Below are positions 10,006 through 25,971 of a stretch of DNA of 64,000 nucleotides, in pieces. Numbering within the stretch: position 1 is the first letter of the stretch; the number at the start of each line of letters is the position of its first letter. A program made the translations under genes and the position numbers. The notes below the pieces were generated by a model. It searched no databases. It saw nothing but the letters and a program-made list of their open reading frames with translations, and was not told where the DNA came from. Source of the DNA: an uncultured Acidimicrobiaceae bacterium (GTDB lineage: Bacteria > Actinomycetota > Acidimicrobiia > Acidimicrobiales > Bog-793); NCBI GenBank assembly GCA_963838845.1, contig CAWISR010000002.1:430663-494662 (forward strand), given 5' to 3'.

Positions 10006-10035
10006 TAGTTCAACCCAATTAGGCGGGTTCAAATA
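10006..10035. repeat. Two overlapping, oppositely oriented degenerate cassette-type sites
   Basis: TAGT-TCAACCCA-ATTA (+, 10006-10021) and TATT-TGAACCCG-CCTA (-, 10035-10020). Confidence 0.5.
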
Positions 10036-10061
10036 AACGTGGAGTTGCGACGCGTGGTACC

Positions 10062-10096
10062 GTCCCCGACAGGTGTTCCACACACCTGTCGGGGAC
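10062..10096. repeat. Perfect 15-bp inverted repeat with 5-nt loop
   Basis: GTCCCCGACAGGTGT-TCCAC-ACACCTGTCGGGGAC. Confidence 0.9.
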
Positions 10097-10539
10097 CATT
10101 GACGACTCCGAGGACGCCGCCGAGGAAACGGAGGCTCTCGAAGGATGCTGATGGCTGTCACGGCTAAGCGTTTCCAGCCGAGCGGCGTCTTGAGCGTGCT
10201 CATCTCAGCACGGGAGTTCCGCGGGACCAAATCGCGATTTGCATGATCGAGTTTTGCCGTCGGTTCGTGCTGACGCGATCCACGAGCTGCCCTTGATGCG
10301 GGGCGGGCGATTAGCAAGCCAGGCATCACTTGTTCCGCTTTGCGCGGCTACCAATGGAGATGATGCGCTCTTCTCGTACAAGCACGGCTCCGTCGGTCCA
10401 ATGACTGAGCGCATCCATATCGGCATCCTGACGTTACGCGAGAGATCCGAGCGAACCTCACAGAAGACCTGTCCTGCCAACTCACGTCAGTGACGCCGAG
10501 AAACGCTGCGGATCAACGTCCGGGCGCGGAACTCCGCGT

Positions 10540-10555
10540 TACTTGAACTGAATTA
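10540..10555 (+). repeat. Putative recombination site, type A
   Basis: TACT-TGAACTGA-ATTA, 37 bp before the 10593 start. Confidence 0.65.
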
Positions 10556-10592
10556 AGCAGTCTGATCGGGACCTGCCGATCGCCCCGAGCTA

Positions 10593-11795
10593 GTGCGAAA
10601 CTTTGTCGTGCGATCGGCGAGACCGCGGCGTCCTTTCTCAGCCGCGCACGGTGGACGCGTCCTTCTCGTATCCGTCGCCTTGCTGGCGGCATGGGGACAA
10701 TCAACAAGCGTGGCGGCAACGAGAAAGCCTTCTTCGGTCACTCGTTCGGACGCGAGGCCGTCTTCGTCGGGCACGCTCGCCTATCTTTCGCCCGTCGATT
10801 CGGAAACGGCGTGGGCCGTCGTCGACAGCGTCGAGGGCGGTGAGCGCGTGCTGCGCACCACGAATGGGGCGGCGAGCTGGAACGACGTCACCCCGCGACA
10901 GCTAAAGGCTCTGGTCACCGGCGCCAACGTGGCAGCCGGTGCCGCGACTCCCCAAGTCCTATTCGTCGGTGCGAAACGGGCGTGGACGTCCGCAGATGGA
11001 TGGCTCGTCGCCACGACTGACGGCGGAAGGATGTGGGCCACCCTCGCCCGGTTGCCCAAAACGTGCGTTCCTCTCCAGTTCGTCGACCCAACACACGGTT
11101 GGTGCGAAGTGACCGGCGCGGCGGCCGGCTCCGAAAGCGTCGTCCTCTACCGGACCAACGACGGGGGCCTGCACTGGCAGCGGGTGAGTGCCACCGAGCC
11201 GAGCTCGTCGACCAAAGGAGCCCTCCCGTTCGGTTGCGAAAAGCCGATCAGTTTCACGAGCGAGACCGTGGGGTGGGCGGGACTCACCTGCTCGGGCTAT
11301 ATCAGCCGCGTGTACGAGACGACCGATGCCGGTGCCTATTGGACAGCTCGCACGATCAGCGGGATTCCGCCGTCAATGGCGGATGCCGAGATCTCAGTCG
11401 TCCCACCGAGGCTCTCCGGCGTCCTCGGCGCCGGCGTCATGTTGGTCAACAACGACGTCATCATGTATCGCAGTGAGAACCGCGGTGTCACTTGGCGGGC
11501 GGTCGCGCCGCCAGGAAAGCTCCAACCCTGGGATGCCGACGTGATCAACCCCCTTCAATGGCGCCTCGCTGATGACCGGCGCATCGAGTCCACCAACACG
11601 GGAGGTCGCACGTGGACGGTCATCAATCCCAACTGGCCTATCCCTCCGGCGGCCAACCCCCACCTAAACCTGCCCACCCTCCAGTTCGTCTCGGGAAGCG
11701 TTGGGTGGGGCACTTACTACATGCCAAACGGTTCGATAGTCCTTCGAACCACCGACGGCGGAGCACGGTGGACGAAGGTTCGATCACCGGCTTGA
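10593..11795 (+). CDS. Secreted BNR/Asp-box repeat beta-propeller (YCF48-like)
   Basis: Signal peptide; repeated TxDGGxxW motifs. Confidence 0.8.
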   Translation: MRNFVVRSARPRRPFSAAHGGRVLLVSVALLAAWGQSTSVAATRKPSSVTRSDARPSSSGTLAYLSPVDSETAWAVVDSVEGGERVLRTTNGAASWNDVTPRQLKALVTGANVAAGAATPQVLFVGAKRAWTSADGWLVATTDGGRMWATLARLPKTCVPLQFVDPTHGWCEVTGAAAGSESVVLYRTNDGGLHWQRVSATEPSSSTKGALPFGCEKPISFTSETVGWAGLTCSGYISRVYETTDAGAYWTARTISGIPPSMADAEISVVPPRLSGVLGAGVMLVNNDVIMYRSENRGVTWRAVAPPGKLQPWDADVINPLQWRLADDRRIESTNTGGRTWTVINPNWPIPPAANPHLNLPTLQFVSGSVGWGTYYMPNGSIVLRTTDGGARWTKVRSPA

Positions 11796-11852
11796 TTTGC
11801 CGCCCCGATCCTCGGATCCAATAGACGACGTTTGCCGGAACCTCAGCACGAT

Positions 11853-11868
11853 TACTTGAACTCAAATA
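11853..11868 (+). repeat. Putative recombination site, type A
   Basis: TACT-TGAACTCA-AATA between two genes. Confidence 0.6.
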
Positions 11869-11946
11869 CTCAGTCGACGCTCGTTCGTTTCGACGCTTCC
11901 CAAGGTGCTTCGTGGATACAGTGCAAGGCATCGCGATGAGCCGCCA

Positions 11947-12447
11947 ATGACCGAGCACGGGAGCGATGTCGACCGGCGCGCGGAGTGGGAGTCCTTGAAG
12001 GCCCGCTACCTCCGACCGCTGGACGCACGACCGGTCTCGTCGGCCCGAGGTCTGCACCACTTCGCCTTGCTCTGCAGCGATGTCGAACGGACCATCATCT
12101 TCTACCAGGAGCTTCTCGAGTTTCCCCTGGTCGAAGTCTTCGAGAACCGGGACTATCGCGGATCCACCCACTTCTTCTTCGATGTGGGACACGGCAACTA
12201 TCTGGCGTACTTCGATTTCCCCGGTCTTGACCTCGGGGACTACCGCGAAGTGCTCGGCGGCCTCCATCACATCGCGATTTCCGTTACTCCCGAGCAATGG
12301 AACCGGCTCGTGGCCAAGCTGGAAGCGGCAGGAATCGAGACCCTCATCGTGGACGGTTCATCGGTCTACTTTCCCGGACCAGATGGCGAACGACTCGAAT
12401 TGCTCTCGTACCCGCTCAACGACATGTACGGGACGATCGTCGGCTGA
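11947..12447 (+). CDS. VOC/glyoxalase family protein
   Basis: GLHHFAL...FYQELL, GLHHIAI, SVYFPGPDGERLEL. Confidence 0.85.
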   Translation: MTEHGSDVDRRAEWESLKARYLRPLDARPVSSARGLHHFALLCSDVERTIIFYQELLEFPLVEVFENRDYRGSTHFFFDVGHGNYLAYFDFPGLDLGDYREVLGGLHHIAISVTPEQWNRLVAKLEAAGIETLIVDGSSVYFPGPDGERLELLSYPLNDMYGTIVG

Positions 12448-12469
12448 GTCACGCGTGACGAGAGCACGA

Positions 12470-12506
12470 CGATGAGAGCTATCAGCACCGTATTTCTGCA
12501 CAATTA
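12470..12506 (+). repeat. Putative recombination site, type B, with conserved flank
   Basis: Core TATT-TCTGCACA-ATTA (12491-12506); 28/35 identity to 24668-24702. Confidence 0.6.
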
Positions 12507-12789
12507 CGCAGCGTCACCTTCGTGAGCGTCCCCGACCGGCATGTCTGAAGGAGCGGGGCCGTGTCAATCCTCGCGACAGGCGGTTCTTCCTGCTCGATGC
12601 TCTGGGACTCGACGACACAACCTGAGTGAAGGCGCGCGCCATCGAGGCGTCGGGGTCAAGGTGGAGCGCCCGTAGCAATGCGAGGACGAACGACCTTGAC
12701 GCCGGCGCCGAGTGGCGCAGGATGTCTCCGGTTGTGGTCGGCGGTCGCTAAGCGCCGTTGGGTTCGCACCAAGTTCTCTCGCGTCAGAG

Positions 12790-12955
12790 ATCGTGAGAGC
12801 GGCAAGCTCGGTTGCCGAGGCATGTCTTCGCTGAGTCGCTCAGCATGGTGTGTTCCGGCCGCGAACGGGCGGGCTCAATCACTTTGCCGGCTGCGCCACT
12901 CCTTTGAGTGGGAGCCCTGCCGATCGTCGAGCTCGCGCCCGTTCGCGTCCGAGCG
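12790..12955 (-). ncRNA. Predicted bridge RNA/seekRNA of IS copy 1 (3' end uncertain, may extend toward 12561)
   Basis: 11-bp closing stem (12861-12871 with 12936-12946) around an internal hairpin flanked by CGAUCGGCA and AAAGUGAU, which match the two target halves; a second hairpin loop carries AGACAUGC, matching the circle junction. Confidence 0.75.
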
Positions 12956-13966
12956 TCACGCCGCCTTGGGGCTCTTGAGACAGCGGATCTCTCCGTCTCT
13001 GAGCCCGTAGTAGACGAGCGTGAGGACCTTGCGGGCGATGGCGACAGTCGCCTTTTTCTTGCCGCGCCGGTCGGCGATCGACTGGAAGGCGGCTTCGAAG
13101 ATGCCGGCGTGGTAGCGGGCGACGGTCTCGACTGCTGCCCAGCGCACGAGGCGCGAGCCTTGTTTCGTGATCTGACCGCGACGGACCTTGGTGTCGGACT
13201 CGCGATGAATCGGCGTGAGCCCCGCCCACGAACAGAGTGCCTCTGGTGAGGGAAAGCGCGAGACGTCGCCGATCTCGGCGACGAAGATCGCCGCCATCAC
13301 TTCGCCGACGCCATAGATCGCCTGCACGGCGTTGTAACCGGGATCGTGGCGCAACAACAAATGCGTCTGGCGGTCGATCTCGAGGATCTCGCGGTTGAAG
13401 AAACAGACGAGGTCGCGCAGCACCTCGATGCGGTGCGAATAGGCGCGAGGGATCTCGAGCGAGTCGAACTGGGCGGCACCGCCGACGCCCCACATGTCGT
13501 TGCGAACGGGCAGCACACCGTTCTTCGCGAGGACGGCGTGTGCCTGAGCCTTCACGCCCGTGCGCATCGACGAGAGCTTGTTGCGGAATCTGACGAGCTC
13601 TCTCAGCTCACGGAGCTCCGGTGGCGCGATCCACGCCTCGGCAAGACGGCCGAGGCGCAACAGGTCGGCGAGGTCGTGCGCGTCGCGCTCGTCGTTCTTC
13701 ACGCGGCGGTGTCCCCAGTCGTTTCCCTTCGGGTTGGCGAGGTGGACGACATAACCGAGACCCTCGAGCAGGTCCGCCGCCCAATACCAGCCGTAGGTGG
13801 CTTCGAGGATCACGTCGCTTCCAGCCGGCGCCGCCAACACCGCGGCGGCGAACTCACCGGGATCGTTGTCGATGCGCACGCTCGAGAGCTGCTCTCCGCC
13901 TGCGTCCATGCGCACGATCACCGAACGGCGGCGGTGCAGGTCGATGCCGACGTACTCTCGTTCCAT
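12956..13966 (-). CDS. IS110 family transposase/recombinase
   Basis: YVGIDLH, VILEAT, KNDERDA (DEDD); C-terminal AEIGDVSRF...GLTPIHRESD...KQG. Confidence 0.96.
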   Translation of the reverse strand: MEREYVGIDLHRRRSVIVRMDAGGEQLSSVRIDNDPGEFAAAVLAAPAGSDVILEATYGWYWAADLLEGLGYVVHLANPKGNDWGHRRVKNDERDAHDLADLLRLGRLAEAWIAPPELRELRELVRFRNKLSSMRTGVKAQAHAVLAKNGVLPVRNDMWGVGGAAQFDSLEIPRAYSHRIEVLRDLVCFFNREILEIDRQTHLLLRHDPGYNAVQAIYGVGEVMAAIFVAEIGDVSRFPSPEALCSWAGLTPIHRESDTKVRRGQITKQGSRLVRWAAVETVARYHAGIFEAAFQSIADRRGKKKATVAIARKVLTLVYYGLRDGEIRCLKSPKAA

Positions 13967-14276
13967 CGGGGCCTCCCTTGTCGTGGGACTGGTGTGAGAA
14001 ACCCCAGTTTCGCCATTGAGACTGGAACTCTCACGGGGAGCGGAGGCCCCGCTCCTTCATCGCATCACTTATGCCACGCACGGGTTAATCGTTGCGGCGG
14101 CGTTATGGGCTACTTACCAGAGTGCAGATCGCCGAATCCGGCGTCGATCGAGGCTCAGATTCGGGTGGGGGGTCGAGGTGCGGGGATCGGCAGTTATGCG
14201 CTACCACCGCTTCGGTTAATCGGCCGTCTCATCTCTCACCCAAGAGGGTGCGGCCTCTGACGAGTCTGACGCCGGG

Positions 14277-14684
14277 TCAGCGTTGGGTTGGTTCTCCAGG
14301 TGCGATGTCGACGAACAGCTCGACTTCGTTTCCGTCGGGATCGTGCATGTGCATTCCTTTGGTGTTGGCGTGGCGCAGCTCGAACAAGATGACGACGCCG
14401 GCGGCTTCGAGCTCGCTTTTGGTGGCGTCGAACTCGTCGAGCGAGTCACCGACTTTGAACGCGACGTGGGCGAGGCCGGCGGTGTTGCGATCGGAAGAGG
14501 GTCCGTTCTTGCCGAGTTCCATGACCGCGAAGTCGTGATGGTGACCGAGGGTGAAGAAGACCATTGGTACCGGGTGGGCCGTGCGGCCGGCAATGGGGAT
14601 CCCCAGTGTCTTGCCGTAGAAGTGTTCGGCGCGTTGCGCATCGCGCACTTTGACAACGACGTGACCGAGTTCCTGAATCCGCAT
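14277..14684 (-). CDS. VOC family protein (catechol dioxygenase-like)
   Basis: LGHVVVKV, HHDFAV, GLAHVAF, DPDGNEVEL. Confidence 0.85.
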   Translation of the reverse strand: MRIQELGHVVVKVRDAQRAEHFYGKTLGIPIAGRTAHPVPMVFFTLGHHHDFAVMELGKNGPSSDRNTAGLAHVAFKVGDSLDEFDATKSELEAAGVVILFELRHANTKGMHMHDPDGNEVELFVDIAPGEPTQR

Positions 14685-14893
14685 CACGGCCTCACGGGCT
14701 GTCGGCCGAGCTTGGCGAGGAGTCGATCGGTGGGCGGCGCGCTCGAGTCGATGGGGACCTCGGCGCCGAACGCTCCGTGGGCGCGATAGAGGTCGAGGGA
14801 GATTGGACGGTAGAAGTTGTCGAGCATCGCTGCCACGGCCGGATCGATCGTCGCATCGGCTCCGAGCGCGGTGGCGACGTCCCATGTGTGCAC
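14684..14893 (-). pseudogene. C-terminal fragment of a TIGR03086/MDMPI-like metal-binding protein
   Basis: VHTWDVATALG...FGAEV...APPTDRLLAKLGR with the N-terminal part missing. Confidence 0.65.
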
Positions 14894-14898
14894 GACGG

Positions 14899-15336
14899 CT
14901 AGGCGGGCGTGAGGCCGTGGCGGCGCATCACTTCGAGCAGCGCGGCAACGTCGGGCGGGCCGTAGGGGGTGGCGGTCAGGACGTCGCGGATCTCGGTGAA
15001 GTACTCGGGCCCGAAGACGCCCGGAGTGGCCACCGAAAGAAACTTGGCGTCGACCGTTCCGGTGTTGACGAACTGGTGGACTTGGCCTCGTCGGATGCAG
15101 ACCGCGTCGCCGGGGCCGATCTCGCGCGAGTGGTCGTCAATGGTGAAGGTGAGGACGCCTTCGAGTCCATAGACGGTCTCGTCGAACGCGTCATGGCTGT
15201 GGGGCGGGGGAACCTGGGCTCCGCCTCGGACTGCGCATTCGAAGACGGTCGCGGCTCCGTCGGAATCCTGCGCCTCGACGAGGAATCGGACGTCGATCCC
15301 GCCGAGGGTGATGGTGGTGTTGGACGTGGTCTGCAT
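14899..15336 (-). CDS. Cupin domain protein
   Basis: PPPHSH...DETVYGLEG...PGDAVCIRRGQVHQF. Confidence 0.88.
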   Translation of the reverse strand: MQTTSNTTITLGGIDVRFLVEAQDSDGAATVFECAVRGGAQVPPPHSHDAFDETVYGLEGVLTFTIDDHSREIGPGDAVCIRRGQVHQFVNTGTVDAKFLSVATPGVFGPEYFTEIRDVLTATPYGPPDVAALLEVMRRHGLTPA

Positions 15337-15407
15337 GGTGCTCTCCCTGGTCGGTTGTTTAGCCTAGATGGAGATTCTGCGCAGATGTATCCTCTAATGT
15401 CAAGGCC

Positions 15408-16058
15408 ATGGCCCTGGCAAAACGCCCATACGACGCCCGCCGCCGCCGCGAGCGCGCGACCGAGGAACGCTCCGAGACCCGCCGCCGCGTCGTCAACGCC
15501 GCCCGCGAACTGTTTCTCGAGCGCGGCTACGTCGCCACGACGATGGCTGACATCGCCCGCGAAGCGGGCGTCGCGCTGCAATCGGTCTACACGGCCGGGC
15601 AAAGCAAAGCCGATCTGCTCCACCTAGTCACCGACCTCGCGGTCGCGGGCGACAGCCAAGAGGTCATGCTCGTCGACCGGCCCGTATACGCCACCGTCGC
15701 CGCCGAACCCGACCCGGCACGACAGATCGAGATGTTCGCCGGCTTGATCGCAACAACCATGGAACGTCTCGCACCCGTCTGGATCACCTACCGCGAGGCC
15801 GCCGCCGTCGACCCGAAGGCCGCCGCCAATCTCGTGGCGGCCCACCGTCGACGCCACGAAACCTTCCGAACCCTGATCCGCATGGTTCCCGAACAACACC
15901 TACGCAACGATCACGACCGCAGCGCCGACACGGCGTGGGCAGTCGGCAGCATCGACGTCTTCCTGCTTCTCCGCACGGTCCTCGAATGGGACCCGGCCCA
16001 ATACGCCGAATGGCTACGCGACACACTGATTGATCAGCTCGTCGCGCCGCTGCGCTGA
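15408..16058 (+). CDS. TetR/AcrR family regulator
   Basis: AARELFLERGYVATTMADIAREAGVALQSVY; divergent from the cupin gene. Confidence 0.9.
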   Translation: MALAKRPYDARRRRERATEERSETRRRVVNAARELFLERGYVATTMADIAREAGVALQSVYTAGQSKADLLHLVTDLAVAGDSQEVMLVDRPVYATVAAEPDPARQIEMFAGLIATTMERLAPVWITYREAAAVDPKAAANLVAAHRRRHETFRTLIRMVPEQHLRNDHDRSADTAWAVGSIDVFLLLRTVLEWDPAQYAEWLRDTLIDQLVAPLR

Positions 16059-16207
16059 CCGCGACCGGGACTGTCCGATCTGATCGGAACTGCGAGGCGC
16101 GTCCCATAATGCGCGCTGGCATCCGGCTCCGAGCGCGCCCACAAACGCCGGATTGGTGACGGCGCTACGACGGTTCACTGATTCAAACCGCTGCTCGGGG
16201 ATTGTCG

Positions 16208-16231
16208 CGTTTAATTGAACTGGATTAAACG
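16208..16231 (+). repeat. Putative recombination site, type A
   Basis: CGTTTAAT-TGAACTGG-ATTAAACG, perfect 8-bp arms. Confidence 0.75.
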
Positions 16232-16290
16232 GTTTGATCGAGGCGTGCGTCGATCAGTTACTGTTCCGCCACACCGAGCTCGAATCGACG

Positions 16291-16812
16291 CTACAAGGCC
16301 TTGCACGTCCAACTGCCGGAGATCTTGACCGTCTGCCCGGCGACATCGCGCATCGACGCGCTGATGGAATCGGTCTTGGCCGCGATCGTGACGGTGCCAG
16401 TCGTCGCGGTGAAGTCCCACTTCGCGCTCGTCTTGCCCAGCGGTTCCGGATCAAAGACGACATGTGGTTGCTTGATGGGGCTCCCCGTGATCTTGAATGT
16501 GCCCCTGTTGTTCTCGATCACATCGAGATTCCAGTAAGTGACGTTCTTCGTGAAACCCGAGATCGGCCCGACAAGGTCGCTGACACTCGTCGAGCCGCCG
16601 ATATCGACGCATCCCGCTGTAACGGAGTGACCGAAGTGAAGGGTGCCGTGCCCGGCTCCTGAGATCGTGAAGGTATTGACCGGTGAGCCTTTGGCCGGGG
16701 TCTTCGACGCGGCTGCCGTGCCAACTGCGAGGTACCCGGTCACTGACACGCACAGTGCAGCCGCGGCAATCCGTCCGGTCATCTGCGCCCGCTTGTTCGT
16801 CCGCGTCGTCAT
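16291..16812 (-). CDS. Secreted hypothetical protein
   Basis: Signal peptide-like N-terminus; beta-rich mature region. Confidence 0.6.
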   Translation of the reverse strand: MTTRTNKRAQMTGRIAAAALCVSVTGYLAVGTAAASKTPAKGSPVNTFTISGAGHGTLHFGHSVTAGCVDIGGSTSVSDLVGPISGFTKNVTYWNLDVIENNRGTFKITGSPIKQPHVVFDPEPLGKTSAKWDFTATTGTVTIAAKTDSISASMRDVAGQTVKISGSWTCKAL

Positions 16813-16914
16813 TTCGCACTCCCGGTTCGTCTTCGGGAGTAAGCGGGTCGGCCGAGCGCCCGCGCGACAGCTTCGAGTGCCGCCCATGGAAAGAAACTAC
16901 CAATCGCCGAAGGT

Positions 16915-17112: not shown

Positions 17113-17185
17113 GTTGGCGCTTGCCTACTTCCGAGTCTTGCCGCAGAAGGAGCACTGCGCGTTCGGGTCGCCAAGGATCACGGCC

Positions 17186-17232
17186 GTTAATCCTTGCCGC
17201 TTTCGACGGTCGGGCGAAATTGAACACGAGTA
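17186..17232 (+). repeat. Accessory motif plus degenerate type A site
   Basis: GTTAATCCTTGCCGCTTTCGAC (20/22 to 23540-23561), then AAAT-TGAACACG-AGTA. Confidence 0.6.
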
Positions 17233-17369: not shown

Positions 17370-18749
17370 ATGAGGAAGTTCCTCCTTTGCGCGGGTCTAG
17401 GAATGGTTGGTTACGTCGCGGTTTTCGCGCTCTGCGGTCCGGCTGGCGGAGCCGTCCACCATCGAATAGTGCGTAGGCCCGATTTGGCGTGGTTCCGAGC
17501 AGGCCAGTCGTCAGTTCCCGCCTCGGGCGGGACGGTGGTTCTCACGGCGCGAGTCCTTCGGGCGGTTTCGTGTGAATTCGGAGGAGGAGAAGCCAAGCCG
17601 CTTTACGAACACTGTTCCGGGGGCGTGGCGCGAGTCGACGAGACGTTCCCCGCGAACTCAAGCGCGTCGGCTCAGCCCTGGCGATTTTGGGTGCGCGCAC
17701 GAGGGCGCTTCGGTTCGGTCGTGAAGTATCTGTCGCTCAACCAGCTAGGCAATGAGATCGTACTGACAGCATCTCTGAACTCGGACACGACGTTTCTGTC
17801 GTACACGGGCGGATCGTTCACCCTCTCGTACTCCTCGACAGACGCGTCGAATTGTTCGCTGTCCTCCTCACCTACTTTCTGGTCCGGCGTGAACCCGGCC
17901 ACGGTCAATTGCACAGGGACGTATTCGGCACCCCAGTCGAGCAACGCGTCAACTTCGACGCGGAGCTGGGCCTTCACGTTCACCGCCACCAACGCGAATG
18001 GTCTGTCAGCAAGCTCGTCCGTGACGATCACACAGGCTGGAGCTCCATACGTCACGGATCCGAACTGGTCGGGTTACGTGACGAACGAGGGAGCGATCGT
18101 CACTGAAGCAGACGGAACGTGGACTGTCCCGGCACTTAATTGCCCCGATACGCCAAACGCCGGTGCTTCCCAATGGGTTGGGACCGGCGCTGGTGGTGGC
18201 GCTGCAAGCGGCCTTCTCTTGCAGACCGGCGTCGTCAGCGAGTGCGTGAGCGGGAGCCAGGAGAACTACGGATGGTGGGAGCTGTACCCGACCTCAGGTA
18301 CAGGTGCAACGGAGTTCTCGTCGTTCACGGTCTCGACCGGAGATCAGATGACCGCGTACGTGTACCAAATCGAATCGAACTGCACGACGTACTGCGGTCA
18401 ATGGGAAACGGTTCTTGAGGACCTCACTACCGGCATCGAAGGGGTGATGGTGACCGAAGAGGGCTACGGCGTGACCTCGATCGGATCGAACTCATTCACT
18501 CAGCAAGGATCGACGGTGGGCCTCTCGTACTCTGGCGGCACCACGGCAGAGTGGATTGTCGAGGACTACGGGAGCCCGATGGTTCCCTTCGCGAACTACG
18601 GAACGGTGACGTTCTCGAACTTGCACTCCGACTTAAATACCCCAACTCTCGCCGGAGACGCCTGGGCAATCGAACAGAACGGAGTAGTTCTGTCGACGCC
18701 ATTCGCTCCTGAAGGCGACGGCTTCAGCGTTAGCTATACGGGCCCGTAG
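17370..18749 (+). CDS. Secreted G1-family glutamic peptidase (eqolisin) with N-terminal beta domains
   Basis: NWSGY, WTVP, QWVG, LLQTGV, WWELYP, TAEWIVE, YGTVTF. Confidence 0.85.
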   Translation: MRKFLLCAGLGMVGYVAVFALCGPAGGAVHHRIVRRPDLAWFRAGQSSVPASGGTVVLTARVLRAVSCEFGGGEAKPLYEHCSGGVARVDETFPANSSASAQPWRFWVRARGRFGSVVKYLSLNQLGNEIVLTASLNSDTTFLSYTGGSFTLSYSSTDASNCSLSSSPTFWSGVNPATVNCTGTYSAPQSSNASTSTRSWAFTFTATNANGLSASSSVTITQAGAPYVTDPNWSGYVTNEGAIVTEADGTWTVPALNCPDTPNAGASQWVGTGAGGGAASGLLLQTGVVSECVSGSQENYGWWELYPTSGTGATEFSSFTVSTGDQMTAYVYQIESNCTTYCGQWETVLEDLTTGIEGVMVTEEGYGVTSIGSNSFTQQGSTVGLSYSGGTTAEWIVEDYGSPMVPFANYGTVTFSNLHSDLNTPTLAGDAWAIEQNGVVLSTPFAPEGDGFSVSYTGP

Positions 18750-18791
18750 CGAACGCGCTGAACTTCTGAAGCGCATGAAGCGCCGTCAGAG

Positions 18792-18817
18792 CGCCGTAAT
18801 AGAACTGGATTACTGCG
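18792..18817 (+). repeat. Putative recombination site, type A
   Basis: CGCCGTAAT-AGAACTGG-ATTACTGCG. Confidence 0.75.
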
Positions 18818-18877
18818 ATGTCCGCCTGGGGACCTTCGACCCTGTCCCGACTCGGGTGAGGCGCCCACCATTGCCAG

Positions 18878-19486
18878 ATGGTCACGGGGGACCGTGGGGA
18901 TAAGCCGCGCGGAGAGCGCATCTTTATCCAGGACTTCGTCGACCTAGCACGCCCATTCGAACAGGTTCAGGAACGATTTCTTGGAGACGGCAGCTGGCTC
19001 ACGCCGCTCGCGAGCGCAGCCGAAGAAGATGGCGAGTCTCTTCGTATGCGGATCTCTCTTCGCATGCGGATTGGACCGACGTGGGCAGGTGGTCGGGTGA
19101 CCCGCCCGGTGAGAGTGGTCCTTCGACCAGCTTGGGACCGTGGCGACGCGCTCATCGTTCCACTCGCTTGGGAGGTCATCGGTCTTCATTCGATGATCCC
19201 GTCGCTCGAGGGCGACGTGGAGGTTGCCCCTCTTGGTCCGGATCACTGCCGGATCACCCTTTCGGCCTCGTACGTGCCACCGTTCGGCGAACTCGGGGTT
19301 CGTCTCGACCACGCCCTCATGCGTCATGTCGCCGCCTCGACCGTGCGCTCCTTCGTTGCCCGCGTGGCTGCGAGCATTCAAGATCAGGAGGGAGGGTCTT
19401 ACGCTGACATCGAGCCAGCCATTAAGCGGGTCGAGAAGCCCGAGAACTGGACACTCGACGAGTCCGAATATGGAGGCGAGGGTTAG
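18878..19486 (+). CDS. Hypothetical protein (possible SRPBCC-like fold)
   Basis: PSLEGDVEV...ITLSASYVPPFGELG...VRSFV pattern. Confidence 0.65.
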   Translation: MVTGDRGDKPRGERIFIQDFVDLARPFEQVQERFLGDGSWLTPLASAAEEDGESLRMRISLRMRIGPTWAGGRVTRPVRVVLRPAWDRGDALIVPLAWEVIGLHSMIPSLEGDVEVAPLGPDHCRITLSASYVPPFGELGVRLDHALMRHVAASTVRSFVARVAASIQDQEGGSYADIEPAIKRVEKPENWTLDESEYGGEG

Positions 19487-19502
19487 TAATAGAACTCGAT
19501 TA
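19487..19502 (+). repeat. Putative recombination site, type A
   Basis: TAAT-AGAACTCG-ATTA starting at the base after the TAG stop; core identical to 25929-25944. Confidence 0.75.
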
Positions 19503-20326
19503 AGACGCGCACGATTACTGCATCAGGCTGTCCAATCGTTTGTGCGACGTCGGGATTGTCGACGTTTTAAGGGAGATGGCGTAAGTGGCGCCCCATCGGG
19601 ATTCACGCGTAGCGACGCGTCTTGATACGACCCGGGCTGTTGCGCCACACCTTTGGCATCCTGCCACCACCCACTTGGATTTTGAGGTAGCTCTCGAGTG
19701 GGACGAAGTCGCTCGAGCAAGCTTTTCAGGTCACGCGTGGTACTCAACGAGCTTCTCCGAGTTTCCATCGAGCGGTTCGGCGTCGATAAGCGCTGACCGA
19801 TGTCGATCACAAGAATCCACGACATAAACGTTGCGACCAACATGGAGTGTGCCACGCCATGTGGCGCTCTCGCTGCACTGCCCTCGCGCATGCTCAGTTT
19901 TGACGACGCGTTGGCAACTTCGTCTCAACCGCGCAACGTTCACTTCGAGTACGACGGGGTGAGACGCACCCTCCCCGCGTCCAATCCCCGCGCCGCAATC
20001 TGGCGGGGGTCGTTCGAAATGAGAATCTCCCAGCACAGTTTACACAGCCACCATTTCGACAAGCTGGCGGCTTCGAATGACGAACCCAGGTCGGAGGTCT
20101 CCTGACATCTGGAGCATTGACGAGTTGTGAGGTGATCGAGAGTCGGAGTGCCAGTGGCTTGCGCGCCCGCGACCTCCTCAGAACGAGTCGCTGGGCACAT
20201 CGAAACCGCCGATCTTGCCGTCGAAAGCGGCGACGCTGAAGTTCGAGGTGGACTCGATACGCATCGTACAGCCGTTCGGTAGGTAGCCGAACATCCGTTC
20301 CGGGAGAAAGTTAAGCGACACGCGTG

Positions 20327-20342
20327 TTACTTCTCACTATTA
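20327..20342 (+). repeat. Putative recombination site, type B-like
   Basis: TTAC-TTCTCACT-ATTA, 5 bp before the conserved IS target motif. Confidence 0.5.
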
Positions 20343-20611
20343 AGCGTGCGTCCCCGACCGGCATGTCTGAAGGAGCGGGGCCGTGTCAATCCTCGCGACA
20401 GGCGGTTCTTCCTGCTCGATGCTCTGGGACTCGACGACACAACCTGAGTGAAGGCGCGCGCCATCGAGGCGTCGGGGTCAAGGTGGAGCGCCCGTAGCAA
20501 TGCGAGGACGAACGACCTTGACGCCGGCGCTGAGTGGCGCAGGATGTCTCCGGTTGTGGTCGGCGGTCGCTAAGCGCCGTTGGGTTCGCACCAAGTTCTC
20601 TCGCGTCAGAG

Positions 20612-20777
20612 ATCGTGAGAGCGGCAAGCTCGGTTGCCGAGGCATGTCTTCGCTGAGTCGCTCAGCATGGTGTGTTCCGGCCGCGAACGGGCGGGCTCAA
20701 TCACTTTGCCGGCTGCGCCACTCCTTTGAGTGGGAGCCCTGCCGATCGTCGAGCTCGCGCCCGTTCGCGTCCGAGCG
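20612..20777 (-). ncRNA. Predicted bridge RNA/seekRNA of IS copy 2
   Basis: Same sequence as 12790-12955. Confidence 0.75.
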
Positions 20778-21788
20778 TCACGCCGCCTTGGGGCTCTTGA
20801 GACAGCGGATCTCTCCGTCTCTGAGCCCGTAGTAGACGAGCGTGAGGACCTTGCGGGCGATGGCGACAGTCGCCTTTTTCTTGCCGCGCCGGTCGGCGAT
20901 CGACTGGAAGGCGGCTTCGAAGATGCCGGCGTGGTAGCGGGCGACGGTCTCGACTGCTGCCCAGCGCACGAGGCGCGAGCCTTGTTTCGTGATCTGACCG
21001 CGACGGACCTTGGTGTCGGACTCGCGATGAATCGGCGTGAGCCCCGCCCACGAACAGAGTGCCTCTGGTGAGGGAAAGCGCGAGACGTCGCCGATCTCGG
21101 CGACGAAGATCGCCGCCATCACTTCGCCGACGCCATAGATCGCCTGCACGGCGTTGTAACCGGGATCGTGGCGCAACAACAAATGCGTCTGGCGGTCGAT
21201 CTCGAGGATCTCGCGGTTGAAGAAACAGACGAGGTCGCGCAGCACCTCGATGCGGTGCGAATAGGCGCGAGGGATCTCGAGCGAGTCGAACTGGGCGGCA
21301 CCGCCGACGCCCCACATGTCGTTGCGAACGGGCAGCACACCGTTCTTCGCGAGGACGGCGTGTGCCTGAGCCTTCACGCCCGTGCGCATCGACGAGAGCT
21401 TGTTGCGGAATCTGACGAGCTCTCTCAGCTCACGGAGCTCCGGTGGCGCGATCCACGCCTCGGCAAGACGGCCGAGGCGCAACAGGTCGGCGAGGTCGTG
21501 CGCGTCGCGCTCGTCGTTCTTCACGCGGCGGTGTCCCCAGTCGTTTCCCTTCGGGTTGGCGAGGTGGACGACATAACCGAGACCCTCGAGCAGGTCCGCC
21601 GCCCAATACCAGCCGTAGGTGGCTTCGAGGATCACGTCGCTTCCAGCCGGCGCCGCCAACACCGCGGCGGCGAACTCACCGGGATCGTTGTCGATGCGCA
21701 CGCTCGAGAGCTGCTCTCCGCCTGCGTCCATGCGCACGATCACCGAACGGCGGCGGTGCAGGTCGATGCCGACGTACTCTCGTTCCAT
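20778..21788 (-). CDS. IS110 family transposase/recombinase
   Basis: Protein identical to 12956..13966. Confidence 0.96.
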   Translation of the reverse strand: MEREYVGIDLHRRRSVIVRMDAGGEQLSSVRIDNDPGEFAAAVLAAPAGSDVILEATYGWYWAADLLEGLGYVVHLANPKGNDWGHRRVKNDERDAHDLADLLRLGRLAEAWIAPPELRELRELVRFRNKLSSMRTGVKAQAHAVLAKNGVLPVRNDMWGVGGAAQFDSLEIPRAYSHRIEVLRDLVCFFNREILEIDRQTHLLLRHDPGYNAVQAIYGVGEVMAAIFVAEIGDVSRFPSPEALCSWAGLTPIHRESDTKVRRGQITKQGSRLVRWAAVETVARYHAGIFEAAFQSIADRRGKKKATVAIARKVLTLVYYGLRDGEIRCLKSPKAA

Positions 21789-22086
21789 CGGGGCCTCCCT
21801 TGTCGTGGGACTGGTGTGAGAAACCCCAGTTTCGCCATTGAGACTGGAACTCTCACGGGGAGCGGAGGCCCCGCTCCTTCATCGCATCACTTTTGTGACA
21901 TTCGGGAAATCGCGTAAGAGGCTGTGATCCGTCGGCCCAAAGCTAAGTTGAGTCGTGGGTTTACGAAACACCACATCGCCCGGACAGAATTAAATTGCGT
22001 AACCAGCCCAACGTGGGGTCCGTCGGCGGGTTAAGTAGCCCATTCGAACTCTCTTCGACAGAGTCAGTAGTCGTAGGCTGCCTCGT

Positions 22087-22614
22087 GTGATTGTTCCCGA
22101 CACGAAGGACTGGACATGGGTCCTCGAGCGAGCCTGTCCGGAGTGTGGCTTTGACGCAAGCAAATGCGAAGCTGAAGATGTCGCTGGTCTAATTCGAGAC
22201 GACGCGCAGGTATGGGAACGATTTCGGCGCAATGGCACCATTCGAGCTGGTCGTCCCAACGAGTCAACGTGGTCGACTCTCGAGTACACATGTCACGTGC
22301 GCGACGTCTATCGGATTTACAGAACACGGATCCAACGCATGCTGACCGAAGACGACCCTCTGTTTGAGAATTGGGACCAGGACGCCGCCGCAATGGTTCA
22401 TTCCTACGAGCAACAAGCTCCCGAGGTGGTCGCTGCTGAGCTCGCCTTTGCTGCCGAGTCGTTGGCGTCAACGCTCGACGGAGTGTCAGGTTCGTCCTGG
22501 CTTCGAGCTGGCCGTCGAAGTGACGGGGCGTCCTTCAGCGTTGGCACCATCGCCCGTTACATGATCCACGATCCCATCCATCACGCCTGGGATGTGCAGA
22601 AGCAGCACTCTTAG
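22087..22614 (+). CDS. DinB family protein
   Basis: DTKDWTWVLERACPECG, WSTLEYTCHVRD, HDPIHHAWD. Confidence 0.85.
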   Translation: MIVPDTKDWTWVLERACPECGFDASKCEAEDVAGLIRDDAQVWERFRRNGTIRAGRPNESTWSTLEYTCHVRDVYRIYRTRIQRMLTEDDPLFENWDQDAAAMVHSYEQQAPEVVAAELAFAAESLASTLDGVSGSSWLRAGRRSDGASFSVGTIARYMIHDPIHHAWDVQKQHS

Positions 22615-22684
22615 CATCTAGGACCCCTGATTATCGAAAGTACGGGGTCAGTGACGGTTGGGAACAGCGCTGATGGACGCGCCG

Positions 22685-22700
22685 CAATAGAACCCGATTA
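22685..22700 (+). repeat. Putative recombination site, type A
   Basis: CAAT-AGAACCCG-ATTA. Confidence 0.65.
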
Positions 22701-22806
22701 TGAGCGCCGAGCGGAAAGGGTGGAGCCCCATCTCGATTCGTCCCTGAGCAGCGACGCCTGACTTTCACTACCGTTCGGTCTGACCCATCTAGCGCCGGAG
22801 GCAGCC

Positions 22807-23103
22807 ATGCGGTTCCTTCAGTTCATTGAGTTCAAGACCGACGACATCGACGCATTCTCGGCTGAGGTCGACCAGTGGATAGCGGAGTCCAAGGATTGGC
22901 GAACGGCTTCGCGGTCCACTTTGTGCGCAGATCGTGACAACCCCGGTCATTACGTCAGCATCGTGGAATTCCCCTCCTACGAGGAAGCCATGGCCAACTC
23001 GAACGACCCCCGGACGGCCGAGTTCGCGGCGCGTTTGGAGAAAATCACATCCGGGGATCCGAAGTTCCGCAACCCCGACGTGCTCCGGGTTGAGGAGATG
23101 TAA
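22807..23103 (+). CDS. Small dimeric alpha/beta-barrel-like protein
   Basis: GGAGG RBS; DRDNPGHYVSIVEFPSYEEAMANS. Confidence 0.75.
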   Translation: MRFLQFIEFKTDDIDAFSAEVDQWIAESKDWRTASRSTLCADRDNPGHYVSIVEFPSYEEAMANSNDPRTAEFAARLEKITSGDPKFRNPDVLRVEEM

Positions 23104-23105
23104 GT

Positions 23106-23185
23106 CTCGGTGTAATTCCCCGATTAATGCGAAGCGCCGAAAGCCGCGTTTACTAAAGCGCGTATATCTGCACTATTACGCCGAG
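23106..23185. repeat. Composite element: shortened type A site, accessory motif and type B site
   Basis: TAAT-TCCCCG-ATTA (23113-23126) and TATA-TCTGCACT-ATTA (23163-23178); outer arms CTCGGTGTAAT/ATTACGCCGAG are near-complementary. Confidence 0.6.
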
Positions 23186-23563
23186 TCCTGAGGTAGTATC
23201 CGACGACGAGGTTGCACCGAGCGGAGCGAGCGGAGCCGCAAGCAACTGCTCGGTTCGCTCCCGAATCTGCTTGAGCGCGCATATATAACGAGAAACCAAT
23301 TTCCGGCTTGCTGCTATTCCGAGGGCCCGCTCTTTCGTCAGTTTTTGAGCGCCAGTACGTTCGGGCGCGTCCGAAGTCTTTAGTTCCTCCCAGATGACGT
23401 CGACGCAGAGATCCACGCAGTCGCCGCAAATCTGGACACCTCGTGCGGCGATCGTCTGTTTGACCTGCTCTTGCGACCGGCCACACCAGCTGCACTTCCC
23501 ATCGGCGCTTCCCGTTGGAACGGAGTCGTCGGCCACGGCGTTAATCCTCGCGGCTTTCGACAA
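23153..23563 (-). CDS. ClpX C4-type zinc-finger domain protein (boundaries uncertain)
   Basis: [30 protein letters not shown]; no AAA+ domain. Confidence 0.65.
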
Positions 23564-23607
23564 GCCGGGCGCAATTGTTCAGTATTAAGCGAGATCCCCG
23601 ACGAGCA
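23540..23607 (+). repeat. Accessory motif, core site and unoccupied IS-target-like motif
   Basis: GTTAATCCTCGCGGCTTTCGAC, then CAAT-TGTTCAGT-ATTA (23572-23587), then AGCGAGATCCCCGACGAGCA. Confidence 0.6.
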
Positions 23608-23690
23608 CTGCCGCCGATATGTCCGCTCGCAGGTGGCGTAGTCCCTAACTTCTCAGGTCACGCGAGGTACTCATAACGTAGTATTCGTCG

Positions 23691-24638
23691 TTGAATTCTG
23701 TCGTCTTCGTGACCAATCGGGCGACAACGCGACGATTGGACCTCCTCGAAATGCGGTGCGAGACCGTTGCCACATCCCATGGTCTGAGGCCCGTCTTCTT
23801 CGAGCGTGTCTCCGACGCGAGCGTCTCGATAGAAAGGGAAGCTGCGCTCGAAGAGTGCGTTGCTGAGAATGAAGCCGAACTCGTCGTTGCCGTCGGTGGC
23901 GACGGCACTGTCCACGTCTGTGTGCAGGCAATCCACGAAAGCGGTGCTGCTCTCGCCATCGTGCCGAGGGGAGCCGCCAACCTGATCGCCCACTCCTTGG
24001 ACCTGCCTTTCGGGATAGACGATGCCCTAGCGGTCGGTTTTGGCAATCATGAGCGCAGGGTCGACGTGGCGGTGGTGAATGGTCGGATCTCGCTTGCGAT
24101 GGCAGGCATGGGATCGGACGCGGCGGTCATCCAAGCCACACCGGCGCTCTTCAAACGGCACCTTGGTTGGATTGGTTATGCCATCGGCGGGCTCTCCCAG
24201 CTGCATGCTGCGCCACACCACTTCGAGATCCGCCTCGACGATGGAGAGCCGATGTACAGGACGGCACATTCTGTTGTCGTCGGCAACGTCGGGATCTTGC
24301 CGGGAGGATTCGAGCTACTTCCCGGAGCACAGCTCGACGACGGGCTCCTCGACGTGGGGGTGCTCGCCGTCGACGGTCTGTGGGGCTGGACGCGGCTTGC
24401 TGGTCGCCTGCTCGAAGAGCGCGCTTACTCCGAGGCTGGCAATACGAGGCTGTATGCGAGCGATGAATATCCCTTTGGCGAGGATGGCGTCGAGCATTAC
24501 CAGGCCCGTCACGTGGAAGTCAGGGCGGAGACCGAACTCTGCTGCGAGGTGGACGGCGAAGTCATTGGCATGAGCCGTTCATTGAACATCGACGTGCGCG
24601 AACAAGCGCTCAGGGTGCGAGCCCCTGTCGCGCCCTGA
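23691..24638 (+). CDS. Diacylglycerol/lipid kinase family protein
   Basis: VAVGGDGT, IVPRGAANL, DDGLLDV, EVDGE. Confidence 0.88.
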   Translation: MNSVVFVTNRATTRRLDLLEMRCETVATSHGLRPVFFERVSDASVSIEREAALEECVAENEAELVVAVGGDGTVHVCVQAIHESGAALAIVPRGAANLIAHSLDLPFGIDDALAVGFGNHERRVDVAVVNGRISLAMAGMGSDAAVIQATPALFKRHLGWIGYAIGGLSQLHAAPHHFEIRLDDGEPMYRTAHSVVVGNVGILPGGFELLPGAQLDDGLLDVGVLAVDGLWGWTRLAGRLLEERAYSEAGNTRLYASDEYPFGEDGVEHYQARHVEVRAETELCCEVDGEVIGMSRSLNIDVREQALRVRAPVAP

Positions 24639-24667
24639 ATTGCCAACGCCGTCATTCAAAGAGAGCG

Positions 24668-24704
24668 CGATGAGTGTTGTCAGCACCGAATATCCGCACG
24701 ATGC
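24668..24704 (+). repeat. Degenerate type B site with conserved flank
   Basis: 28/35 identity to 12470-12504. Confidence 0.55.
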
Positions 24705-24819
24705 AAGGCGACGGAAATAGCCACGGCACTGGCCGGGCGCTCTCGCGGCGAGTTCGATCTGGCGGTACGACGATCTGTTCGAGGGTTCCCGACGGACACG
24801 TCGGGATAGCGTTGTCACG

Positions 24820-25272
24820 GTGCGGGGTCTCGTAATCGCTGTGGTGGCAGCGATCTCTGGGATTGCCCTCGGAGTGGGGATCGCGGGAGCGGTCGCCGCC
24901 AACGCATCCTCGCCCGTGCTTGGATCCAAAGCGTTCGCGGGTCCGAGCGGCGTCGGCTGGGGAACGTACAGACCGCGCGAGATCTTCAACGGCGGCGACC
25001 CAAGCGGATTGGTGAAGGCGATTACCTGGAGGCATTGGGGGAAAACGGAGGCTTATGGCAACGGGAAGACCTACATCTTCAAACCGACGGGTGGCTATTA
25101 CCCCGGCCTTGTGAATATCGAGCTGCGCGCTTCCGATCTGGGGCACTGCACAACCGGTGGCCCGCTCGCATACGAACATCTGGACGCCCGCGTACCGGCG
25201 AAGCCTGGAGGAAGGCTCGGGCCGTGGTTCGCCTGGAGCGACGCAAAGACGCTCTGCCATTTCGGGTTCTGA
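24820..25272 (+). CDS. Secreted hypothetical protein
   Basis: Signal peptide; GWGTYRPREIFNGGDPSG. Confidence 0.7.
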   Translation: MRGLVIAVVAAISGIALGVGIAGAVAANASSPVLGSKAFAGPSGVGWGTYRPREIFNGGDPSGLVKAITWRHWGKTEAYGNGKTYIFKPTGGYYPGLVNIELRASDLGHCTTGGPLAYEHLDARVPAKPGGRLGPWFAWSDAKTLCHFGF

Positions 25273-25345
25273 AGCTCATTCACCGTATCTGTGGCGCGCT
25301 GTCGAGGAGTGAGGGCTAGAAGTTCCCGGGCCAATCATTCTTTGA

Positions 25346-25816
25346 CTAGGAGTTTCTAGGCCGACAAGTGCCGGGCGCCCAGTTCCAGACTGCGAGGACC
25401 GGAGCGGGCAGACGGACCGGGCATTTCGTCCCGGCGATCCCAGTCAGACCGACGTCATCTGCTCTCCAAGGCTTCCCGGCTCTGCGGTTGAAGAGAAGGT
25501 AGCTGCCGTCATCTTGGACCGAGATCTGAGCCCGAAGCGACTTGCTGCTCGGAACGAGCGCCGCGCCCGCCCAGTACGTAGTGGTTGCGGGGTCGTAGGC
25601 GTAGTACGTCTCATCGGCCACGAGTCCCTTGAAGGCCGACGCCGGAAGCCCGTCGAGGGCCGCCCCGGCTTTCAACAGCTCGGCGCGGACCGTGCTTGTG
25701 ACCGAAAGATCCTTGACTTCTTGCGGGGAGGAAGACGATGAAGTCCGGCCCGCGGTCGCACTTCCGCACGCTGCCAACGTCGCTGCCAGAACAGCGAGAA
25801 CAACGAAACGCCTCAC
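25346..25816 (-). CDS. Lipoprotein
   Basis: Lipobox LAAC after a hydrophobic stretch. Confidence 0.75.
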   Translation of the reverse strand: MRRFVVLAVLAATLAACGSATAGRTSSSSSPQEVKDLSVTSTVRAELLKAGAALDGLPASAFKGLVADETYYAYDPATTTYWAGAALVPSSKSLRAQISVQDDGSYLLFNRRAGKPWRADDVGLTGIAGTKCPVRLPAPVLAVWNWAPGTCRPRNS

Positions 25817-25922
25817 TCGAGACCTCCAATTCTAAGCGATTCTGCGTTAGCGACGTAACTCAATGCAACGACTCGGTCATCTGGCCGCGCTAAGTGTCCG
25901 TCAACGCGCAATCGTCAGACTT

Positions 25923-25950
25923 CGCGTTTAATAGAACTCGATTAAACGCG
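25923..25950 (+). repeat. Putative recombination site, type A (best copy)
   Basis: CGCGTTTAAT-AGAACTCG-ATTAAACGCG: perfect 10-bp arms and asymmetric 8-bp spacer. Confidence 0.8.
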
Positions 25951-25971
25951 CACGCTTCTGCCCGTATTTCG

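Follow-up and report, generated by a model that had tools for sequence, protein, structure and literature searches.

Clustered inverted-repeat sites at the joints of gene modules in an Acidimicrobiia genus: candidate targets of a site-specific recombinase

To our knowledge, platforms that shuffle gene cassettes are known mainly as integrons and as the dif modules of Acinetobacter. Does a 64,000-nucleotide stretch from an uncultured Acidimicrobiaceae bacterium (GCA_963838845.1, contig CAWISR010000002.1, positions 430,663 to 494,662; G000:C2:430663-494662, the window in all that follows) hold another one? Its genome, G000, comprises 2.78 Mb on 3 contigs with 65% GC and is 89% complete; together with G001-G004 it makes up a set of five genomes of one Acidimicrobiia genus (assemblies 84-96% complete). 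A mosaic accessory region takes up positions 1-46,000 of the window; it is bounded on the right by a tRNA-Cys gene and an integrase, and core genes lie beyond. A first-pass annotation of this DNA had described AT-rich 16-bp cores of the form TAAT-N8-ATTA around its genes and had proposed a mobile-cassette platform analogous to integrons or pdif modules. Comparison of the sequences supports this proposal: we observe sites that cluster in variable regions, flanks that reassort independently at the cores, whole modules that are reused, and empty, filled, inverted and circularly permuted junctions. We have little doubt that the cores represent true site-specific crossover points, and we consider it fairly likely that they serve a dedicated tyrosine recombinase, probably a single-subunit enzyme.

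Motif, clustering and taxonomic range

The core has the 16-bp consensus TAMTW-N6-RATTA. Over 220 strong sites it reads T A A/C T W - G A/T/G A/G/T C T/A/C S - R A/T T T A, framed by a faint outer consensus CGCGTT...AACGCG. Exact TAAT-N8-ATTA occurs 22 times in G000 versus 0, 1, 1, 0 and 0 times for spacers of 5, 6, 7, 9 and 10, and once in a fifth-order Markov simulation of the genome. When all 4-mer inverted-repeat classes with spacers of 4-12 are ranked, it stands 93-fold above expectation and the runner-up class 4.7-fold. Profile scores of at least 16 are reached 60 times in the real genome versus 3 times in the simulated one; the profile trained on the cores finds 67 G000 sites at this threshold, or 58 once doublets are collapsed. 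Scanned across the genome, as the first-pass annotation had suggested, the cores proved to be clustered. A neighbour within 5 kb was found for 54 of the 58 collapsed sites (random mean 10, maximum 23 in 500 randomisations), and the sites group as ten multi-site clusters and four singles. For five of these ten clusters a tRNA or rnpB gene is no more than 10 kb away, and five lie 20-145 kb from any tRNA, rnpB or transfer-messenger RNA (tmRNA) gene found. All 16-mers listed for the window were recovered in place. Twelve listed or adjacent cores (10006, 10540, 11853, 12491, 16212, 17217, 18797, 19487, 22685, 23163, 23572 and 25929) score 16-29 bits, whereas those at 20327, 23113 and 24689 score below 0 and are degenerate. 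The perfect arms of 8-10 bp ascribed to the best copies are a property of 16212 and 25929 and of no other core.

The motif family is real and specific to the genus. Exact matches number 22, 6, 28, 31 and 4 in G000-G004, compared with 0-1 for reversed-pattern controls, and other genera of the same family show no marked excess over their own controls. The strict pattern matches 5 of 61 relatives, all in this genus. Samples of 401 genomes each from the class and from the order contain at most 2 and at most 3 matches, respectively, outside G000, which has 16. Of 18 stretches around out-of-genus matches, 16 are low-GC DNA with scattered matches and one has a single site. The remaining stretch, on a G063 contig of 66% GC assigned to another genus, carries a site doublet (L271:9130-9170, G063:C21) that adjoins a gene like the cargo of our genus and may reflect misbinning or cross-genus transfer. 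Scanning a collection of genome contigs returned 2 matches, one of them real (L057, the same motif cluster as in a same-genus relative). The scans of metagenome contigs (0 and 5 matches) and of viral contigs (1, 0, 0, 0 and 1) hit DNA of 25-47% GC and were judged to be chance, and a plasmid collection held no match to the motif.

Module joints and the place of exchange

Breakpoints were compared in 40 regions (905 kb, 245 sites scoring at least 13), made up of the G000 clusters and of stretches around strict matches in G001-G004. When 40-nt flanks were compared in register over 29,890 pairs (background identity 0.27 +- 0.08), 51 pairs shared the left flank only, 41 the right flank only and 5 both; after re-orientation of the CTGCAC spacer class described below, these numbers become 45, 48 and 5. 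The same test shifted 100-200 bp off the sites gave 0-6 one-sided and 8-18 two-sided pairs. BLAST matches of at least 100 bp end at a site in both sequences in 40 of 494 cases, while the null mean is 0.075 and the maximum 2 in 200 runs. Among 152 modules, ten whole-module pairs recur across genomes with 84-99% identity, and in none of the ten is the neighbour homologous. The core genes around the rnpB locus are the same in G000, G003, G002 and G004, but the DNA between them differs in content and measures about 4, 12, 23 and 38 kb, respectively.

Individual junctions show the same behavior. Six single-site junctions combine left and right flanks that are found at two sites of one array elsewhere. 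At G003:C6:592936 the left flank of 16212 (77 bp, 83%) continues directly into the right flank of 25929 (497 bp, 89%), with 9,717 bp skipped, and G002:C3:197844 is without the 569 bp that sit between two GAACTG sites in G000. A 4,015-bp segment of G002 runs from one CTGCAC site to another and has the window's glyoxalase module last; G003:C5:367060 joins this last module to the first, which is the junction a circle would have, and amounts to a circular permutation that involves three CTGCAC sites. An inversion-type junction is seen at G003:C3:1336. In a soil-metagenome contig, the glyoxalase module is joined at 11853 to a left neighbour known from G002. Thus, in flank reassortment, whole-module reuse and junctions alike, the synteny breakpoints of relatives coincide with the sites, a point on which the first-pass annotation had let its proposal stand or fall. 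Because the cores sit at the joints where modules change neighbours, they are likely the target of a recombinase.

The modules are mostly small. Single genes make up 81 of 153 modules, the median unit measures 849 bp, and the five gene-bracketing site pairs named by the first-pass annotation are correct. In 74 single-gene modules between direct sites, 37 genes run along the site direction and 37 against it; the median gap is 131 bp on the 5' side (range -11 to 773) and 49 bp on the 3' side, and the stop codon overlaps the core in 8 of 74. With gene calls from a simple in-house gene model, 215 strong sites fall into 109 tandem, 67 convergent and 35 divergent gaps, with 4 inside genes, compared with 430, 189 and 199 among all 818 gaps.

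Where within the core does the exchange take place? The cores set apart as type B by the first-pass annotation have the spacer GTGCAG in profile orientation, with a palindromic inner TGCA. They do form a second spacer class, but since module ends occur with both classes they are best read in the common direction, as CTGCAC. Read in this way, neighbouring site pairs are direct in 126 of 152 cases (91 of 153 before). Non-redundant (spanning-tree) pairs comprise 20 left-sharing and 28 right-sharing ones. Left-sharing pairs keep core positions 1-4 (18-20 of 20) and 6-11 (17-19 of 20) and are at background level at 12-14, while right-sharing pairs keep 13-16 (25-28 of 28) and 6-11 (20-28 of 28) and are at background level at 2-3. 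The whole 6-bp spacer is identical in 11 of 20 and 15 of 28 pairs, respectively, versus 0.066 at random. A homology-dependent overlap, as in XerCD, Cre and other tyrosine recombinases, leaves a segment that both sides retain. That both flank classes keep the central 6 bp points to such an overlap, and these 6 bp are most likely what is exchanged.

Proposed mechanism, candidate enzymes and rival explanations

If a dedicated tyrosine recombinase is at work, two subunits of a homotetramer would bind the near-symmetric TAMTW and RATTA arms, and strand exchange would proceed across the central 6-bp spacer. Partners would need matching or near-matching spacers, with GAACTG, GAACTC, GAACCC, CTGCAC, GATCTC and others as address classes. 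Between direct sites with like spacers, one module or several would be excised and integrated as a circle, and two crossovers would swap modules whose ends are unlike, as in the dif-module models in the available part of PMC13141974. Modules would bring their own promoters, in line with the 5' gaps and either orientation of their genes, and the enzyme, at a guess, may act in trans from a plasmid, phage or other element that the assemblies lack. Short module ends (20-60 bp) that are common to unrelated cargo are unexplained by this mechanism.

Which enzymes are at hand? G000 encodes XerC, XerD, a Cre-like protein and six to seven arm-binding integrases plus fragments. A search for the integron integrase IntI with TIGR02249 gave best scores of 77-79 bits in all five genomes, compared with a cut-off of 265, and all matches were XerD. 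No small or divergent tyrosine recombinase was found in G000 with two home-made profiles and a motif search. The Cre-like gene (C2:3253-4296) was rejected, as it was not found in G001-G004 and its family has a different, 13-7-13 site; among 38 viral loci of this family, one has a single site scoring at least 16. The Cre-like genes of genus g3 (L062, L064, L066) are accompanied by a 13-7-13 inverted repeat with CGATAA/TTATCG arms, which overlaps the 5' region and is probably their cognate site. Also set aside was a simple tyrosine-recombinase family that has left two 3'-end remnants in the window (33014-33221, 34348-34603), with no motif sites in three loci. This family is full-length or nearly so in G001 and G004 and was not found in G003 with the same query. 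Upstream of its G001/G004 genes lies a conserved TTATGAGAAT box, one copy of which is dif-like (L082, L083, L084, L027), and further 3' remnants follow the genes in tandem, which suggests a second, separate site-specific system in the genus. A third Xer-like family (truncated in G000, present in G001 and G002) has no sites nearby, and a PF13495 trace at C3:1258917 belongs to a 143-aa protein in which no catalytic domain was seen. Serine recombinases are present but varied, and Y1/RAYT transposases were found in none of the five.

The comparison with known sites bears on the host enzymes. An attC site is recognised by its boxes, RYYYAAC...GTTRRRY, and a loxP site has inverted arms around a spacer. 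None of 218 strong sites has a pair of attC boxes within 100 bp, and an attC-like hairpin model of the core was rejected since the outer arms do not co-vary (complementarity 2.44 of 8 versus 2.41 of 8 in shuffled left/right pairings). The host dif is canonical and lies at the GC-skew switch (C2:1030155); the site arms agree with it at a mean of 6 of 22 bases, with 10 as the best value, and TAA-N6-TTA occurs in 1 of the 218 sites. The claim of the first-pass annotation that the motif is neither attC nor dif is therefore confirmed. These figures, together with the host's separate dif, argue against XerC and/or XerD acting on the sites as on Acinetobacter pdif, although the two are the sole tyrosine recombinases seen in all five genomes, work with a 6-bp overlap, and would find something like a XerC arm in a weak outer consensus, CGCGTTTAA, if a 10-bp gap is allowed. 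Both proteins are ordinary, and their DNA-recognition region is the same as in genera without the motif; we regard their involvement as quite unlikely. The xerD gene of G003 is split over two frames (L086, G003:C5:526468-527329), a frameshift or an assembly error. A different possibility is that the arm-binding integrases of tRNA and rnpB islands recombine the sites with relaxed core specificity, so that no dedicated enzyme exists. Arrays do lie inside two att-flanked islands (tRNA-Lys and tRNA-Ala, 7 sites each) with remnants of integrase, excisionase and prohead protease, so that temperate elements may carry and spread arrays; for the integrase of the tRNA-Lys island, no viral relative was found. 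Further, the integrase gene of the rnpB locus is followed by a site 28 bp past its stop, and that of tRNA-Cys by a weak site. Yet the integrases differ between islands while the motif is constant, their att repeats are tRNA ends and not the motif, two tRNA-Val islets are without sites, and five clusters are remote from any such gene, which makes this explanation unlikely. The RNase P RNA gene (G000:C3:1550920-1551257; L040:12921-13258) is an integration hotspot of the genus, and in G000 an integrase lies directly downstream.

Type A cores are palindromic around a central AC, and each of the five genomes has IS110 as well as serine-recombinase genes. The central dinucleotide might hence be exchanged by a serine recombinase or an IS110/Piv-type enzyme, a mechanism that has been proposed for Neisseria dRS3. 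In the IS110 family of the window, the 3' end of the transposase lies within 80 bp of a site in 5 of 9 copies (in G000, 1 of 5 plus one at a degenerate site), but the G002/G003 copies among the nine came from site-selected regions, and a site was present in the fetched stretch at just 5 of 30 IS110 loci. The 14-bp doublets of sites described below recall the short sites of bridge recombination; the ends of the insertion sequence (IS), however, are unlike the motif. A 2-bp central crossover is also disfavoured by the left-sharing pairs, which keep positions 10 and 11 in 17 and 18 of 20 cases, where a shared central pair alone would predict fractions of 0.45 and 0.53 (P about 3e-4 and 5e-4), leaving this explanation with slim prospects. 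It is highly unlikely, in our judgement, that the motif is a binding site of a regulator or nucleoid protein and that the modules were joined by short-homology or illegitimate recombination. Dimeric regulators typically bind interrupted AT-rich palindromes, the hunt for an enzyme was negative, and tandem 14-bp copies could be cooperative binding sites. An operator, however, would keep a constant position and orientation upstream of the genes it regulates. The fixed distance to start codons that the first-pass annotation had named as evidence against its own proposal was not seen, and since genes face either way at variable distance, with nearly a third of the strong sites in convergent gaps and others in divergent ones, the motif does not behave as a transcription-factor site. 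Moreover, breakpoints are confined to the core with spacer identity kept, and homologues of the 18878 cargo gene in other genera as well as core orthologues in the genus are without sites (28 loci; one 15-bit and one 11-bit match).

Several observations weigh against site-specific exchange by a dedicated enzyme. No recombinase tracks the motif, XerC and XerD being the only tyrosine recombinases found in all five genomes. G001-G004 were sampled around their sites and not as whole genomes, in regions chosen for these sites, and the flank-sharing pairs are not mutually independent. Most BLAST matches (454 of 494) do not end at sites on both sides, an in-register flank match at another locus exists for just 5 of 12 strong window sites, and the sites are not the sole way in for cargo, as the 14138-16151 block and IS110 illustrate. 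The circles that the first-pass annotation had suggested looking for, and alternative junctions, were sought in contigs of 4 runs, with 21900-29000 left out, and the search yielded one site-precise alternative junction (11853) and no circle. The re-orientation of the CTGCAC class is a post-hoc rule. The spacers of related pairs are not fully identical in about half of the cases, and core positions 5 and 12 are intermediate (13 of 20 and 19 of 28) with neither flank followed cleanly, by which an 8-bp overlap is possible. There are 32 site doublets exactly 14 bp apart with TA in common, whose first spacer is mostly GATCTC (10 of 28) and which are unexplained. Finally, the depletion of equal spacers between neighbouring direct sites is weak (4 of 127 versus 8.5 expected, P = 0.07). 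It is in line with a loss of modules with matching ends, and as neighbours rarely share a spacer, single-module circles such as 18797-19502, which the first-pass annotation had envisaged, are not expected to be the main route. The spacers of 18797 and 19487 in fact disagree at the most conserved spacer base, and exchange between these two is predicted to be rarer.

The window array and its relation to known platforms

Table 1. Sites, cargo and neighbouring elements of the array (window positions).
Feature	Position	Strand	Description
Left-most site	10006..10035		14-bp-period doublet; cores 10006-10021 (score 16) and 10020-10035 (score 8)
Site	10540..10555	+	spacer GAACTG, score 28
Cargo	10593..11795	+	secreted BNR/YCF48-like repeat protein; last 100 bp of module recur at a contig C3 site with another right neighbour
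Site	11853..11868	+	spacer GAACTC; each flank found elsewhere with other partners
Cargo	11947..12447	+	glyoxalase/VOC gene; site-to-site matches of module 11853-12506 in G002 (96.6%) and G003 (95%), neighbours differ
Site	12491..12506	+	second spacer class (CTGCAC read on +)
IS110-family element	12530..14068	-	inserted inside a module; 5 near-identical genome copies
Glyoxalase / cupin / TetR block	14138..16151		present in soil-metagenome contigs
Site	16212..16227	+	spacer GAACTG, in convergent gap
Cargo	16291..16812	-	secreted-looking protein without Pfam/NCBIfam family
Site	17217..17232	+	spacer GAACAC, score 19.5
Cargo	17370..18749	+	peptidase A4 (glutamic peptidase) domain protein
Site	18797..18812	+	spacer GAACTG, score 28
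Cargo	18878..19486	+	202-aa protein of no known family; paralogues site-bracketed at two other G000 loci and in G003
Site	19487..19502	+	spacer GAACTC, begins directly after stop codon
Degenerate site	20328..20342		5-nt spacer, adjoins second IS110 copy
Second IS110 copy	20352..21890	-
Probable half-site	21977..21992	+	left end of DinB module; left arm lost, right arm and spacer intact
Cargo	22087..22614	+	DinB-superfamily gene; G003 (90%, as far as site 22685) and G002 (91%) share the module
Site	22685..22700	+	spacer GAACCC, score 20
Cargo	22807..23103	+	98-aa protein; family recurs in other modules
Site group	23113..23178		degenerate 4-nt-spacer core (23113), weak core (23151), CTGCAC-class site (23163-23178)
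Cargo	23153..23563	-	stand-alone ClpX-type C4 zinc-finger protein; listed frame, true start maybe internal
Site	23572..23587	+	spacer GTTCAG; right flank (~60 bp) opens six modules in three genomes
Cargo	23691..24638	+	diacylglycerol-kinase/YegS family gene; site-to-site match of module 23573-24702 in G003 (93%)
Degenerate CTGCAC-class site	24689..24704	+	in register with intact site G003:C5:347294
Cargo	24820..25816	+ / -	two convergent secreted-looking proteins, no known family (24820-25272 +; 25346-25816 -)
Site	25929..25944	+	spacer GAACTC, 10-bp perfect arms
Module	25945..26748		MarR-like helix-turn-helix gene and GYD-domain gene; from site on, shared with G002 (90%) and G003 (89%)
Arm-binding-type integrase and tRNA-Cys	44859..46204	-	right edge of variable region; weak site 44830

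The array (Table 1) does not end at 25950, as had been assumed, but continues to the right of 25929 to at least 26748 as a module shared with G002. The half-site at the left end of the DinB module is read as such because the G003 homologue has a weak site there. The first IS110 element is a passenger, and the integrase with tRNA-Cys is the host island. Since the ends of the 14138-16151 block in soil-metagenome contigs lie off the sites, this cargo was captured by another route. Stand-alone ClpX-type C4 zinc-finger genes number five in G000, all in site clusters, and nine in the regions of four genomes; their products are possible adaptors or decoys of ClpXP. PADLOC gave no match among 18 window proteins, and in an Rfam scan of the window tRNA-Cys was the sole family found. 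Both IS110 copies have about 430 bp of non-coding DNA after the transposase, a candidate bridge RNA. Two non-coding repeats were noticed besides. One of about 42 bp with hairpin-like ends has four genome copies (window 28652-28696 and 32548-32587; C2 around 636,650 and 662,530) and no Rfam match at gathering score; the other, of about 65 bp and without Rfam match, has six (window 32370-32437; C2 around 639,160, 656,420, 937,900 and 941,350; C3 around 662,960). A c-di-GMP-II riboswitch lies within a site cluster (L038:16946-17031).

What would such arrays mean? The chances seem to us evenly poised that, next to integrons and dif modules, they constitute a third and independent kind of bacterial gene-cassette platform, in which a dedicated, trans-acting tyrosine recombinase serves self-expressing modules pooled across the genus, with several spacer classes of one symmetric site as addresses and with circles and two-crossover swaps as routes. 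If this holds, cassette platforms arise repeatedly and are missed by current tools, with an Actinomycetota case that has neither IntI nor a dif sequence, and the hypervariable islands of the genus would be explained. The enzyme would be a new recombinase with natural spacer classes that behave like orthogonal lox sites, and thus a natural multi-address (cassette-exchange) recombinase for GC-rich hosts. Sites and predicted products are specified with single-base precision, which opens the claim to direct tests. A literature search, with most subscription journals outside its scope, found no description of the motif or of such arrays in Acidimicrobiia.

As far as the available parts of these papers go, pdif sites consist of a XerC arm, a 6-bp spacer and a XerD arm, form alternating C and D modules, and recombine at identical or near-identical spacers (PMC13141974). 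Chromosomal dif-module islands are described in Acinetobacter (PMC12907356), IS elements that target pdif in PMC10132070, arrays of dRS3 and Neisserial intergenic mosaic elements (NIME) with a postulated recombinase in PMC1797815, and tyrosine-recombinase groups are surveyed in PMC8138268. Judged from this material, the arrays resemble dif modules of Acinetobacter in that small modules are flanked by short sites with a 6-bp spacer, crossover falls within the site, and identical or near-identical spacers appear to be needed (26 of 48 pairs are wholly identical). They also share the reuse of modules with new neighbours, inversions, multi-module excisions and arrays without a recombinase gene. 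In contrast to dif modules, TAMTW-N6-RATTA is nearly symmetric, without XerC/XerD arms and unrelated to the host dif, the sites are mostly direct and do not alternate between C/D and D/C, the host is an actinobacterium, and 14-bp doublets occur.

Integrons, and among them the clusters of attC sites lacking integron integrases (CALINs), are similar in other respects. Sites are mostly direct, units are mostly single genes of diverse, often unknown function that reassort at delimiting sites, stop codons sometimes overlap the site, and one genome holds several arrays without an adjacent integrase. Unlike in integrons, there is no IntI, no attC box and no long hairpin, spacer homology is kept, genes are not co-oriented, and 5' regions are long, while integron cassettes are co-oriented and for the most part promoterless. 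With Cre/lox the sites share inverted arms around an asymmetric spacer and spacer classes as would-be non-interchangeable addresses, whereas they differ in the dozens of degenerate sites per genome, in conserved arms of 5 bp only, and in that no cognate recombinase gene was found adjoining a site, the Cre-like gene of G000 being absent from its four relatives. Neisseria dRS3/NIME, to the extent covered by the available text of PMC1797815, likewise combine a genus-specific inverted repeat around 8 variable bases with dynamic arrays and a proposed recombinase supplied by a mobile element, there a phage-encoded transposase/recombinase. ATTCCC-N8-GGGAAT, however, flanks non-coding elements of 50-150 bp, and the units here are genes. 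Thus, the array works like dif modules and is laid out like CALINs, and departs from both in the defining site and enzyme.

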